IMG/VR virus record: IMGVR_UViG_3300028498_000052 | Span: 1,842 to 65,841 of that record | Length of the DNA stretch: 64,000 nucleotides | Source of the DNA: a virus | Strand: one strand, 5' to 3' | Part shown: positions 28,637 to 32,471 of the stretch, one piece after another | Numbering within the stretch: the first letter of the stretch is position 1 | Layout: every line of letters starts with the position of its first letter | The notes under the pieces: generated by a model | The model's database searches: none | Told to the model about the DNA's origin: nothing | What the model saw: the letters and a program-made list of their open reading frames with translations, nothing else | Translations under genes and position numbers: made by a program

Positions 28637-29812
28637 CTATTGTATTTTTGCTAAAGCATTCTTATAGTTTTGACGATCTGGCTTTAACTTAATTACAGCT
28701 TCGAGCTGTGCAATTGCTTGCGATTTTTTACCAAGAGCTAAGTAAACCATTGCAAGCTCATATTTAGATTGGTATGACTCTGGCCATCTTTTTTGAATTT
28801 CTAAATGTGTTTTTACAGCTTCTTCTAACAAACCAACCTGACGAAAATAATACGCAAGACTGACATGGTGTGCTGGTATATTTGGCTCTAATGCCAAAGC
28901 AAACAATATATGATCTTTTCCTTTTTCGTAATTATTTAATCGATACAATATATTCCCCATCATATACTGACTATAAGATGAAGCAGGATACTCAGCTAAT
29001 GCTAACTCAAGAAACTGTCTGCATTTTTCATTATCTTTATTTTGATAAGCTAGCCAACCATGATAAAAATTATATGCAAACTTATCATAAGACATAGCAC
29101 GACCTGTGTCTGATAATTTTAGCGAATCACTTCCAGACATAAAGGACCAAATCAACGCCAGAAACCTGTTGCTGGAAACAAAGGTTCTTAATACAGTATG
29201 CTCATCAGCAGGAAACGTTACTACTCTCACATTTTCAAAATCTTTGACTGAGTCAGCACAATATAAGTCAACTGGATCACGTTCACCTGTATATATATGA
29301 AAAACCGCACTACTATCTTTCATTGATGATCGAATATCTGGAAAGTTGACAGGAGCACCTTTTGGCATCATTTTTGTAGAGCGGCTGCTAGGGAGTTTGA
29401 GCTCAATTTCTGGGTTGAACGCTAGTACATTGCAATTCAATGACGTGCCATAAAGCAAGGCACCGTATGCTCCCATGCTTGATCCACATGTATACATACT
29501 TGTTATATCATGAGCTTCCGCTAGCGATTTAATTGCTGCAATGGTTCCATCATGGGAGTCAGAAATGCCCGGTATGCCGCTTTGATACCAGTCATTGGTC
29601 GGAACTCGCAGAAATAATATGTTATGTGGTATTTGGTCTCTCAAGCTCCATAAGTTGAAACGGCCAGTCTTTGTTCCCGTAGCACTAAGTACTATTAACA
29701 ACTTGTTTGAGTTGGGCTTCGCGTCAAAGTAGTGTGTATCTGATGACAATGGGATTGTAGTATTTATTTCTGCATTCATTTCTATAATAGTCCTCGGTTC
29801 CGAATAACTCAT
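28637..29812 (-). CDS. Moron: alpha/beta-hydrolase + TPR protein, paralog 1
   Basis: Nucleophile elbow CGSSMGAYGA; GERDPVD; DEH; C-terminal TPR helices. Confidence 0.8.
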   Translation of the reverse strand: MSYSEPRTIIEMNAEINTTIPLSSDTHYFDAKPNSNKLLIVLSATGTKTGRFNLWSLRDQIPHNILFLRVPTNDWYQSGIPGISDSHDGTIAAIKSLAEAHDITSMYTCGSSMGAYGALLYGTSLNCNVLAFNPEIELKLPSSRSTKMMPKGAPVNFPDIRSSMKDSSAVFHIYTGERDPVDLYCADSVKDFENVRVVTFPADEHTVLRTFVSSNRFLALIWSFMSGSDSLKLSDTGRAMSYDKFAYNFYHGWLAYQNKDNEKCRQFLELALAEYPASSYSQYMMGNILYRLNNYEKGKDHILFALALEPNIPAHHVSLAYYFRQVGLLEEAVKTHLEIQKRWPESYQSKYELAMVYLALGKKSQAIAQLEAVIKLKPDRQNYKNALAKIQ

Positions 29813-29939
29813 ACATATTTTGATAGCTGTTAAATTTACAATAAATTAACGACAGTTAGGTTTGATGTCTAAATTCAACTGTCGTCATTACACAACCAAC
29901 TTAGAACTCTGAGAGTGTATTGTAATAATTATTCGTCAT

Positions 29940-31151
29940 CTATAAATTCGAAGCGTCAAGCCGAACTTTAAGAGCTTGAGTCTTTTTTAGTCTGTCTATA
30001 AAAGACGTATTATTGGGCGAATACTTCACAGCTCTTTTCAGATAATAAATGGCCTTATCTACATTTTCCAATTTCAAATGGCAAAGACCAACGCCATAAT
30101 ATGCTGCAGCGTGCTCTGGGCGAAATCTAATTAACTTCAAATATGCTCGCTTCGCTTGAACAGTCTCACCCATTTTTCGTAGCGAGTGAGCAAGACCTAA
30201 TTGTGATCCATCACGGCCACGCAGTGCATAAGAAACAGAAAATTGCTCAAATGCTTCCACATATTTCCCGCTACCCATAAAAGCATCTCCAAGCAGTCTT
30301 CTCGCTTCATCGCATGCAGGATACAGCTCGACACAATTTTTTAACTTAGTGATAGCAACAGAGTAGTTTTTATCTCTTATGTCACACCAACCTCCATAAA
30401 AATTTGGTGGAAAATCTTTGTACTCGAGAGCTGCTCCAAACTCTTCCATGTCTGGAAATTCACTTCCATTTATCCACCCTAGAAGCAATGGCTCTAGACG
30501 GTCGCGATTTCGTAGATATCCGGCTGGACCATGTCCAACATCTCTCATTGTATGTACTTTAATGCCTGGTACCGATAACATTCTTTGTGCACAGTAAATA
30601 TCAATAGGGTCTTCTTCACCAGCAAGCAGAACAGCATCAACACCGCCTTTAAAGGTCACTGCCAAATCTTGATGTTGCATAGCAACTGATCTGTTTGCTT
30701 TTCTGAAATATTGGCTATGCGGTATATCTAATAAAGTTTCAGCTCCAAAAGCTATAATCTTTGCGCCAAGTAAGCCGCCAATTAGCAAGGCTCCATATCC
30801 ACCCATCGATTGACCAGTACAAAAAACTTCATCAACATTCTCCTTCAACATCCAATTTTTGATAGTCTTTACTGTAGAGTCTAGATCATCCCCAATTCCA
30901 CGAATTCCATCTTGATACCAAGAATTACACCAACCATTCACGAAAAGAATATTCGTGTGTTCTGCCAAATTATGTCCAACTTTCCAAAAGTTGAATTGTT
31001 TTGGTTTGGCGCCTGTAGCAGTAAAAAAAATAACAAGTTTATTAGATTCTTTATTGTGTATTAGTTGATGGTGATTTCCTGATATTTGTAAACCCTCATC
31101 TTTCTTGGTATTAGAAGATAAAAATTTTCCAAACTGGCTTTTGATGATCAT
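29940..31151 (-). CDS. Moron: alpha/beta-hydrolase + TPR protein, paralog 2
   Basis: TGQSMGGYGA; GEEDPID; VGHGP; TPRs (AAAYYGVGLCHLKL..VDKAI.YLKRAVKYSP). Confidence 0.8.
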   Translation of the reverse strand: MIIKSQFGKFLSSNTKKDEGLQISGNHHQLIHNKESNKLVIFFTATGAKPKQFNFWKVGHNLAEHTNILFVNGWCNSWYQDGIRGIGDDLDSTVKTIKNWMLKENVDEVFCTGQSMGGYGALLIGGLLGAKIIAFGAETLLDIPHSQYFRKANRSVAMQHQDLAVTFKGGVDAVLLAGEEDPIDIYCAQRMLSVPGIKVHTMRDVGHGPAGYLRNRDRLEPLLLGWINGSEFPDMEEFGAALEYKDFPPNFYGGWCDIRDKNYSVAITKLKNCVELYPACDEARRLLGDAFMGSGKYVEAFEQFSVSYALRGRDGSQLGLAHSLRKMGETVQAKRAYLKLIRFRPEHAAAYYGVGLCHLKLENVDKAIYYLKRAVKYSPNNTSFIDRLKKTQALKVRLDASNL

Positions 31152-31221
31152 AAATTTATGCCTATATAAAATAATAACAGTATACCTGCTTAGTCAATAA
31201 ATCAGCAAAACTTGTCACTAG

Positions 31222-31278
31222 TTAAGGTGAAATATAGTGGAATATTTTTTAATTATTTGATGCTACAAATCGCAAGTT
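31222..31278 (-). repeat. Diverged copy of the endolysin 3' end and its downstream DNA
   Basis: 49 of 57 nt identical to 32529-32585; encodes NLRFVASNN* versus endolysin NLRFAASDN*. Confidence 0.85.
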
Positions 31279-31280
31279 TT

Positions 31281-32471
31281 TCACTGCTTCATCGACTTGG
31301 TTGTATTCAGCCGCTTACTATAAGTTGTATTTTTAGGGTCGTATTTAAGCGCATTCTTAAAACAACTAACCGCACCTTCAAAATTTTCTAACTTAATATA
31401 GCAAAGACCAAGTCCATAATGTGATGGTGCGTTTTCAGGAAACGCTTTTATTATTTTTAAATACGCTCGCCTTGCTTGAGATATCTCACCCATAAAGCGG
31501 AGTGAGTTAGCCACACCTAAATGTGATGGGGCGCGAAAACGCAAAGCAGATGCTACAGAAAATTGCTCGAAAGCTTCTAAATGCATTTTCTCGGCATTAA
31601 GTGCAACACCAAGAAGCCTTCTAGCTTCATCGCATGCAGGATAGAGCTGAACCGCTGTTCTTAGTTTAGTTATTGCCAAAGGATAGTCTTTGTCTCTTAT
31701 AGCGCACCAACCAAGATAGAAATTCTCAGGAAAATCTTTTTCTTCAAGTGCTCTGCCGAACTCTTCCATTTCAGGAAAGATACTTCCATTAACCCAATCT
31801 AAAAGCAATGGCTCTAAACGATCACGTTTTCTCAAGTATCCAGCAGGATCATGCCCGACATATCTCATTGTGTGAACGTTAACAAATGGCACTGACAACA
31901 TTCTTTGTGCACAGTAAATATCAATAGCAGCCTCTTCACCAGCAAGCAGTACGGCATTTAAGCCTGATTCAAAGCTTACTGATAAGTCTTGATGCTGAAT
32001 AGCAATTGAACGATCTGCTTTTCTAGAGTATTGACTGTGTGGTATATCAAGTAAAGTCTCAGCACCAAAAGCTATAATCTTTGCGCCAAGTAAGCCACCA
32101 ATCAACAATGCTCCATACCCACCCATTGATTGACCAGTGCAAAAAACCTCTTTGACACCCTCTTTTGACATCCAACCCTTAATATTTTTTACCGTAGAAT
32201 CTAAATCAGAACCAATCCCACGAACACCATCTTGATACCAAGAATTACACCAACCCTTCACAAAAAGAATATTCGCATGAGCTGCTAACTCATTACCGAC
32301 TTCCCAAAAATTAAATTGTTTTTGTTTTGTGACTGTATCGCTGAAGAAAATAATCAGTTTTTTAGATCTGTTATTGCGTATTAGTTGATGGTGTTCTCCT
32401 GATACTTGCAAATCTCCATTTTCTATAGCGCTAGGAAATAAAGAATCTCTAATATATTTGGGCTTTCTCAT
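31281..32471 (-). CDS. Moron: alpha/beta-hydrolase + TPR protein, paralog 3
   Basis: Shares a 41-aa identical block with paralog 2 (EVFCTGQSMGG...PHSQY); TPR C-terminus. Confidence 0.8.
   Translation of the reverse strand: MRKPKYIRDSLFPSAIENGDLQVSGEHHQLIRNNRSKKLIIFFSDTVTKQKQFNFWEVGNELAAHANILFVKGWCNSWYQDGVRGIGSDLDSTVKNIKGWMSKEGVKEVFCTGQSMGGYGALLIGGLLGAKIIAFGAETLLDIPHSQYSRKADRSIAIQHQDLSVSFESGLNAVLLAGEEAAIDIYCAQRMLSVPFVNVHTMRYVGHDPAGYLRKRDRLEPLLLDWVNGSIFPEMEEFGRALEEKDFPENFYLGWCAIRDKDYPLAITKLRTAVQLYPACDEARRLLGVALNAEKMHLEAFEQFSVASALRFRAPSHLGVANSLRFMGEISQARRAYLKIIKAFPENAPSHYGLGLCYIKLENFEGAVSCFKNALKYDPKNTTYSKRLNTTKSMKQ

Follow-up and report, generated by a model that had tools for sequence, protein, structure and literature searches.

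What are three tandem copies of an unnamed two-domain gene doing at the end of a prophage? The question is raised by a Psychrobacter prophage in the 64,000-nucleotide stretch analysed here (positions 1,842 to 65,841 of IMG/VR virus record IMGVR_UViG_3300028498_000052; "the window" below, which is most of a 67-kb contig), where three genes, P1 to P3, each encoding an N-terminal alpha/beta-hydrolase (ABH) domain followed by tetratricopeptide repeats (TPRs), lie in a row between the endolysin gene and the attachment (att) core. In many bacteria, pseudaminic acid (Pse) is found on capsules, lipopolysaccharide, pili and flagella; phages often use it as a receptor, and few of the enzymes that attach O-acyl groups to it are known. 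Our answer, to which we assign a probability of roughly 60%, is that the trio encodes lysogenic-conversion acyltransferases, likely O-acetyltransferases, that are docked through their TPRs and act on the Pse capsule of the host or on a Pse precursor. What the analysis shows directly is how the genes are built, their fold and homology, which residues are conserved, where relatives are located and how selection acts; chemistry, acceptor, docking partner and phenotype are deduced from these. The three genes are as follows, the reference for their catalytic residues being the capsule O-acetyltransferase CsaC:

28637..29812, minus strand: P1, subfamily A ABH-TPR protein of 391 amino acids (aa); elbow GSSMGAYG; the Ser, Asp and His that align with the CsaC triad are all present.

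29940..31151, minus strand: P2, subfamily B ABH-TPR protein of 403 aa; elbow GQSMGGYG; S115, D181, H207, D184 and E138 are present.

31281..32471, minus strand: P3, subfamily B ABH-TPR protein of 396 aa; elbow GQSMGGYG; Ser and His are present, with Ala at the position of CsaC D198.

An earlier interpretation of the window from its letters alone (hereafter the sequence-only reading) had described three cytoplasmic ABH-TPR proteins encoded between the endolysin and att, and this description holds: the open reading frames (ORFs) are intact, the flanks are a GH108 endolysin gene and an att core made of the ssrA gene end, and none of the three products has a signal peptide or a hydrophobic N-terminus. 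Each protein also has the described GxSMGxYG elbow, the downstream His and the C-terminal TPRs, the latter seen as Pfam matches over approximately residues 250-390 in P1, P2 and P3 (best E 2e-17). P1 was rightly called distant, being 27-28% identical to either of the others, which share 67% identity, and the 41-aa block reported to be identical between P2 and P3 is real (residues 108-148), as is the difference at the candidate acid position (GEEDPID in P2 versus GEEAAID in P3).

The N-terminal ~240 residues matched no Pfam family, and searches of Pfam, PHROGs and PADLOC with the whole proteins returned TPR matches only. A profile search of 1.84 billion representatives found 3102 relatives, mostly 370-410 aa long and 1040 of them at E<=1e-10; with 3102 cluster representatives found, the N-domain thus belongs to a large unnamed family. 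The full-length model (predicted local distance difference test score, pLDDT, 88) has an alpha/beta domain followed by ~4.5 TPRs. Full-length fold searches were swamped by TPR proteins, and the N-domain was therefore folded separately with AlphaFold, giving an alpha/beta-hydrolase with a pLDDT of 97 and a predicted template modelling score of 0.94, whose top matches in both Foldseek and VIA are all alpha/beta-hydrolases. When a profile built from 62 N-domain sequences was searched against all PDB sequences, its best match was CsaC/SacC (6YUO; E 2.2e-6, 30.5 bits), in an alignment that pairs positions 8-208 of the 215 in the profile with residues 24-252 of the 255 in the chain; Asp2/Gap2 appear further down the same list, their matches around the nucleophile elbow being marginal (E 0.007-0.09). 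CsaC also ranked first in an exhaustive structure comparison with VIA-align (Z 16.4, root-mean-square deviation 3.0 A, 188 residues, 18% identity), while Foldseek with the N-domain returned generic esterases and placed CsaC outside the top 50. All three proteins weakly match the XcbB/CpsF capsule family (NCBIfam NF033892; 17.7-20.2 bits, E 3e-4 to 2e-3) at the elbow only, and none of them reaches its curated cut-off of 125 bits.

The catalytic triad of CsaC, S114/D198/H228, is extended by H201, Q138 and Y79, and a D198A mutant loses 99.5% of transfer activity while the acyl-enzyme still forms (PMC7501274). When residue correspondences are counted through the hidden Markov model alignment, the triad aligns with S115/D181/H207 of the family, and H201/Q138/Y79 align with D184/E138/W78-Y79. 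These positions are the most conserved of the family:

Conservation among the 62 sequences: S115 in 59, D181 in 53, D184 in 60, H207 in 59, W78 in 60, Y79 in 61; position 138 acidic in 56.

The CsaC-type H201-Q138-Y79 network is not itself matched, since the conserved positions hold Asp184, Glu/Asp138 and Trp78/Tyr79 instead. Where GEEDPID and GEEAAID differ, the alignment places the catalytic Asp198 of CsaC, and Ala in this position was observed in P3 alone among the 62 aligned family members; it is also present in the ortholog of P3 (96% identical) in Psychrobacter JB193.

One may ask whether such an active site removes acyl groups instead of adding them, in which case the trio would be cytoplasmic glycan esterases (de-O-acylases) that trim the capsule or its precursors before export. 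Most Ser-His-Asp alpha/beta-hydrolases are indeed hydrolases, structural neighbours of nearly equal score are esterases, and CsaC slowly hydrolyses acetyl-CoA (PMC7501274). We nevertheless consider this unlikely, since the only significant sequence-level relatives of known function are transferases, membership of a biosynthetic operon and a cytoplasmic location suit the addition of a group better than its removal, and the phage already has an extracellular esterase-type domain on its tail fibre.

A maximum-likelihood tree resolves three subfamilies. Subfamily A (support 99/96) contains P1, its JB193 ortholog, a gene of a second prophage (see below) and the Pse-locus genes L022_381 and L003_394; subfamily B (100/100) contains P2, P3 and Pse-locus genes including L003_400; and subfamily C contains the Psychrobacter chromosomal genes. 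Both A and B mix phage and Pse-locus members, and the sets found together are A+B+C, A+C or C alone in Pse loci and A+B+B in the prophage. The subfamilies are ancient, and the trio represents members of two of them. The suggestion in the sequence-only reading of a diversified family therefore stands as far as diversification goes, but not as a single local radiation: P1 and the P2/P3 pair belong to two old subfamilies that also co-occur in chromosomal capsule loci.

It is these loci that point to Pse. Eight of the 10 non-phage A/B/C lineages lie no more than 10 kb from the gene of the pseudaminic acid synthase PseI (L003, L022, four Psychrobacter genomes, Marinovum and one Rhodobacteraceae genome), accompanied by KpsE/KpsMT or Capsule_synth and by a galU-pgi-ugd-pgm K-locus end. 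In the metagenome loci L003-L006, three paralogs are located among PseF, PseG, an ATP-grasp protein, a short-chain dehydrogenase/reductase (SDR), PseI, a 1048-aa protein, RmlD, KpsE and an ABC exporter, and in locus L022/L023 two paralogs accompany PseI, a 982-aa homologue of the 1048-aa protein, PseG and a KpsS/C-like protein. The four strong Psychrobacter chromosomal copies are each less than 5 kb from PseI. In one of these genomes, Psychrobacter G145, the order is PseB, PseC, PseF, ATP-grasp, SDR, PseI, a 984-aa protein, PseG and the family member, which overlaps the pseG stop codon, followed by GSCFA, PhyH-like, Capsule_synth, galU, pgi, ugd and pgm, the last four forming the conserved end of Moraxellaceae K-loci. 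The same Pse module occurs in Marinovum (via tblastn on the locus) and in the Rhodobacteraceae genome. A PhyH-like dioxygenase adjoins a family member in two unrelated contexts (L025 7883-10182 and L034 12361-13488; 51% identical).

In every Pse locus seen, the ABH-TPR genes are accompanied by a gene for a conserved protein of ~1000 aa that matches no Pfam or NCBIfam family and that is a candidate Pse transferase or polymerase, as well as a candidate docking partner for the TPRs:

L034 5988-8942, L003 6669-9815, L022 8903-11851 and L011 12405-15383: the ~1000-aa protein in four loci.

The position of these genes also brings up a different explanation, namely that the trio tailors the Pse precursor at the nucleotide-sugar level together with the conserved ATP-grasp protein and SDR, changing which Pse derivative the host makes, perhaps by substituting for a missing PseH or by removing or exchanging an N-acyl group. 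Family members are embedded between pseG, ATP-grasp, SDR and pseI, one of them overlapping a pseG stop, and in Rhodobacteraceae bacterium EL53 one reading frame (L011 7920-10355; 811 aa) joins a B member with its TPRs to the ATP-grasp protein. A short stretch of the lid region is duplicated within this fusion, which is a single case. No PseH above cut-off was detected anywhere in the Psychrobacter genomes G145 and G042, and the Pse operons of G145, G042 and L034 have PseB, C, F, G and I plus the ATP-grasp and SDR pair, a gene content that suggests a non-acetyl N-acyl Pse derivative. There are precedents as well: EpaA/EpaB of Acinetobacter phages change Pse at the pathway level (PMC12053666), and P. 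marincola produces an unusual N5-lactyl Pse (PMC7281560). On the other hand, the nearest characterised relatives, CsaC and Asp2, work on assembled glycans, protein-docking TPRs would not be expected on a soluble nucleotide-sugar enzyme, the prophage supplies neither an ATP-grasp nor an SDR partner, a single pathway step would not call for as many as three paralogs in a locus, and the ATP-grasp and SDR pair could replace PseH unaided. We regard this explanation as rather unlikely.

A protein target would be another possibility: either the enzymes would acylate, like Asp2, the glycan carried by an O-glycosylated protein (pilin, for instance), or they would acylate a protein directly, with the TPRs choosing the substrate. 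Such a role would agree with the weak Asp2 matches, with the common binding of peptides by TPRs, with the non-glycan neighbourhoods of several family members and with the O-glycosylation of proteins with capsule-type units in Moraxellaceae. However, members of A-C are found together with genes for making and exporting capsule (KpsE/M/T, Capsule_synth, the K-locus end), and the match to CsaC is far stronger than that to Asp2, so that we consider it quite improbable.

Does the host of this prophage make Pse? Psychrobacter capsules are known to bear lateral Pse (PMC7281560). We assessed the host Pse locus by aligning contigs of four trio-holding sequencing runs to the G145 K-locus. Run X5, which is isolate-like (small, organism-labelled and of even depth), contains 81% of the trio's sequence words and the whole Pse K-locus at ~98.5% identity, and in run X2 a diverged Pse locus and the prophage region are covered to about the same depth. 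The host-type K-locus carries subfamily C only; to this the prophage adds A (P1) and two B genes (P2 and P3).

From these observations a mechanism can be proposed for the trio as cargo of a prophage integrated in ssrA. Each product would be a cytoplasmic, two-domain protein in which, by analogy with CsaC, the N-domain would load Ser115 with an acyl group (acetyl, taken from acetyl-CoA, is the most likely one), which His207 and Asp181 would help to pass to a sugar hydroxyl. The ~4.5 C-terminal TPRs may dock the enzyme on the capsule assembly machinery of the host, in the manner of TviD. The target would be the host Pse capsule or a Pse precursor, since Pse capsule loci of other genomes include genes of A, B and C, and the prophage enzymes would supply marks for which the host K-locus has no genes of its own. 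The benefit would be an altered receptor that stops superinfection by phages reading the same capsule, including phages like this one. Of the two alternatives offered by the sequence-only reading, this corresponds to the second, in which morons encode acyl-modifying enzymes for surface polysaccharide or its precursors, and which is favoured by the CsaC homology, the Pse capsule loci and the Acinetobacter precedent.

An O-acetylesterase-family domain on the tail fibre fits a receptor whose acylation matters:

34312..36198, minus strand: tail fibre with a SASA (sialate O-acetylesterase family, SGNH-type) domain; PF03629 E 4.9e-9, PHROG tail fibre E 1.5e-102.

GQS and DGVH motifs can be read in its translation, and a PDB sequence search found no relative of it. 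Downstream, a LamG-like gene (33572-34357) overlaps the tail fibre gene, and judged by their domains the two together look like a deacetylating receptor-binding apparatus. Only by hypothesis is the fibre tied to the trio, as an eraser of the same kind of mark. A more far-reaching version of our proposal, which we put forward very tentatively and think more doubtful than probable, would make the ABH-TPR family one of regiospecific Pse acyltransferases, in which each of the three subfamilies, anchored by its TPRs to the ~1000-aa protein, would write its own acyl mark, and the prophage a matched writer/eraser kit that sets host range. Three writers would then re-code the lateral Pse, P3 with its altered catalytic Asp might be a slow or regulatory variant, the esterase-type domain of the fibre would erase or read the marks at infection, and an O-acylation code on a nonulosonic acid would decide phage host range.

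How P2 and P3 came about can be read from the window. Within the 41-aa block they differ at ~15 synonymous sites (dS 0.89, with a ratio of nonsynonymous to synonymous substitution, dN/dS, of 0.01), and these abundant synonymous differences rule out recent gene conversion as the origin of the block, which reflects constraint instead. Over the whole pair, dS is ~1.3, as in old duplicates, and dN/dS is 0.14 in both the catalytic and the TPR domains, so both genes are under purifying selection in both domains. Directly past the P3 stop codon is a relic of the last ~9 endolysin codons (NLRFVASNN* versus NLRFAASDN* in the endolysin), which forms part of a repeat:

31202..31278, minus strand: repeated upstream segment of 77 nt, 82% identical to 32509-32585; contains the endolysin relic.

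The presence of the relic inside this repeat indicates that the P2/P3 duplication occurred in place, and within the trio only this pair arose in that way. Since the 77-nt repeat is better conserved than the synonymous sites of the flanking genes (proportion of synonymous differences, pS, 0.61), it may represent a regulatory element preserved ahead of each B-type gene. Scans for promoter-like sites and terminators gave nothing above chance. One metatranscriptome run contains a small share of the trio's words.

The number of genes is not fixed. Psychrobacter JB193 has the same prophage at the same site with two genes versus three in the window: relative to the window, an in-frame 1.3-kb deletion removes P2, leaving a hybrid gene (L002 11232-12566) in which the first 24 codons of P2 are joined in frame to P1 from approximately codon 14. 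Contigs of run X16, compared with the window, lack P1. No deletion joints that would document copy-number variation were found in the metagenome contigs, which were fragmentary. Lying outside the core modules, varying between related prophages and rare in the genus, the trio can be classed as morons.

Indeed, we observed the family in only 8 of 151 Psychrobacter species genomes and, in a class-wide survey, in 3 of 400 Gammaproteobacteria genomes, too few for co-localisation statistics. A single gene of subfamily A, 62.5% identical to P1, is also present in a second Psychrobacter prophage, which is myovirus-like (L020/L021 10001-11122; L008 6007-7128); the gene lies between a 983-aa tail fibre gene and a lysis cassette with an M15 endolysin. 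Beyond this, a search of IMG/VR returned one other phage contig with a relative and no more, and INPHARED yielded no relative beyond a weak partial match in a Synechococcus phage. A sporadic and mobile distribution of this kind excludes a housekeeping esterase.

Position at a prophage end and multiple diverged copies could be expected of a diversified antiphage defence family, with the TPRs as sensor and the hydrolase as effector, which was the first alternative of the sequence-only reading. TPR sensors do occur in known defence systems, and the trio lies beside a candidate defence islet encoding a leucine-rich-repeat (LRR) protein and a PLD-DnaJ protein. Against this, PADLOC-DB yields no real match: P2 matches none of its models, and the other matches are marginal ones to generic TPR models (E 0.003 and 0.044); relatives are members of sugar-pathway operons, one of them translationally coupled to pseG; the contexts of other members are not defence islands; purifying selection is the same on the TPR halves and on the catalytic halves (dN/dS 0.14), and nothing points to diversification driven by an arms race; and the TPRs of TviD dock rather than sense. 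The alternative gained no support from this comparison: the trio is probably not a new defence system, and we consider an antiphage role the least probable of those weighed here.

Several observations weigh against the acyltransferase proposal. The link to CsaC is remote (18% identity) and ordinary esterases score almost equally in structure (Z ~16), so that fold alone cannot separate a transferase from a hydrolase. Acidic residues at the positions of CsaC H201 and Q138 imply an active site that differs from that of CsaC, and P3 lacks D181, the equivalent of D198. All functions given here to the family are predictions. Glycan genes are missing from the surroundings of many members outside A-C (Mesorhizobium and others) and of two B members, and the metagenome-assembled genome that hosts the second prophage shows no PseI. 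The co-occurrence with host Pse rests on contigs of sequencing runs. Moreover, the Pse-locus genes sit among precursor genes and not beside glycosyltransferases, and this position, taken with the in-frame ATP-grasp fusion and the lack of a detectable PseH, is fitted at least as well by precursor tailoring as by polymer O-acetylation.

The trio can be placed within the prophage as follows. A type VI secretion cluster of the host occupies positions 1-24967 of the window, and the prophage spans ~28.5 to 62.7 kb, with identifiable genes for integrase, CI, CII, antirepressor, TerL, capsid, tail, tail fibre, a holin-like protein and a GH108 endolysin. Its landmarks are:

28480..28506, minus strand: att core, 27 nt, an exact copy of the 3' end of the tmRNA (ssrA) gene.

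32556..33050, minus strand: GH108 endolysin with a PG_binding_3 domain (Pfam E 3.7e-24), which closes the lysis cassette and immediately precedes the trio.

59758-60639, beside the integrase: CI-like repressor (Peptidase_S24 plus helix-turn-helix).

61516..62670, plus strand: tyrosine integrase (Pfam Phage_integrase E 1e-14), at the opposite end of the prophage.

The 27-mer of the att core terminates the tmRNA gene in three Psychrobacter genomes, and contigs from other samples break away from the window at 28476-28521, i.e. at the att core. No intact tmRNA gene was found in the 67-kb contig, including the part after the integrase, and the integrase-side att was not located there. Past the integrase (62671-64000) are ORFs of no assigned function at 63180-63569 and from 63669 to the end. 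On the other side of the att core, a 3.3-kb islet (25189-28506) is bounded by exact copies of the tmRNA 3' end, of 23 nt (25189-25211) and 27 nt (28480-28506), and contains only the LRR protein gene (25543-26793) and a gene for a PLD-like nuclease/DnaJ fusion (26863-28224; PADLOC DrmC-like, E 7e-9). It has no integrase and is 100% conserved in Psychrobacter JB193; from its boundaries and content it is a candidate defence cassette in tandem integration with the prophage. Finally, iteron-like direct repeats containing CGTTAC are clustered at 57446-57737, in or beside a DUF1376 replication gene, and probably mark the phage replication origin.

What these results change is the status of a large family annotated only as "tetratricopeptide repeat protein", which is now tied to CsaC-type capsule O-acetyltransferases and to Pse capsule loci, and whose genes are moved by phages. 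If the proposal is correct, many K-loci would gain functional annotation, prophage-driven change of capsule serotype would have an explanation outside Acinetobacter, and a harmless cheese and marine bacterium would become a tractable system for the control of phage adsorption by acylation of a nonulosonic acid.

With respect to known systems, the closest is CsaC itself (SacC/MynC, N. meningitidis serogroup A), a cytoplasmic alpha/beta-hydrolase with a GxSxG elbow and Ser, His and Asp in the same order, which is the best match by sequence profile and by VIA and whose Y79, Q138 and H201 positions are conserved in the family as well. It differs in its low identity (~18%), in having no TPR domain, in the replacement of H201 and Q138 by Asp and Glu/Asp in the family, and in the Asp that P3 lacks; moreover, its acceptor is an N-acetylmannosamine-1-phosphate polymer and not a Pse glycan (PMC7501274). 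CssE/OatC of serogroup C and ORF5 of E. coli K15 belong to the same enzyme class, a likeness drawn from descriptions and not from sequence comparison; the elbow of K15 ORF5, GGSMGG, is close to the family's GxSMGG, and the substrate of OatC is a nonulosonic-acid polymer (PMC7387560). Unlike the trio, both consist of one domain or are extended in another way, and their genes belong to capsule loci and not to prophages. Asp2/Gap2 of the accessory Sec system (6LNW, 6OYC; PF16929) has an alpha/beta-fold domain with a Ser triad and gives weak, recurrent matches at the elbow, but it is Gram-positive and secretion-associated, acts on a glycoprotein (serine-rich-repeat adhesins) and has no TPRs.

The sequence-only reading knew no named system with this layout, which is true of the family, since it has no name, but TviD of the Vi antigen shares the logic of a catalytic domain plus TPRs. 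TviD has an N-terminal acetyltransferase domain and C-terminal TPRs that attach to the membrane and to the polymerase TviE and are not needed for catalysis; its catalytic domain, however, is modelled as SGNH-like with Cys-His, and the protein has 831 aa and nine TPRs and is not phage-borne (PMC8760489). The trio does not have such an SGNH-like Cys-His domain with a DxxH block, its catalytic domain being a canonical alpha/beta-hydrolase with a Ser elbow. In terms of role, the nearest counterparts are the Acinetobacter prophage proteins Atr29, Atr30 and Atr44, which O-acetylate capsular Pse or legionaminic acid, and EpaA/EpaB, which remodel Pse (PMC6586298, PMC13228068, PMC12053666). These are single genes and not three paralogs, the papers describe no ABH-TPR architecture, and the likeness drawn here is one of role. 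Their effect on the capsule was demonstrated by nuclear magnetic resonance, whereas that of the Psychrobacter trio is a prediction; the role would be the same one, in the same family, Moraxellaceae, in which Acinetobacter is the sister genus of Psychrobacter.

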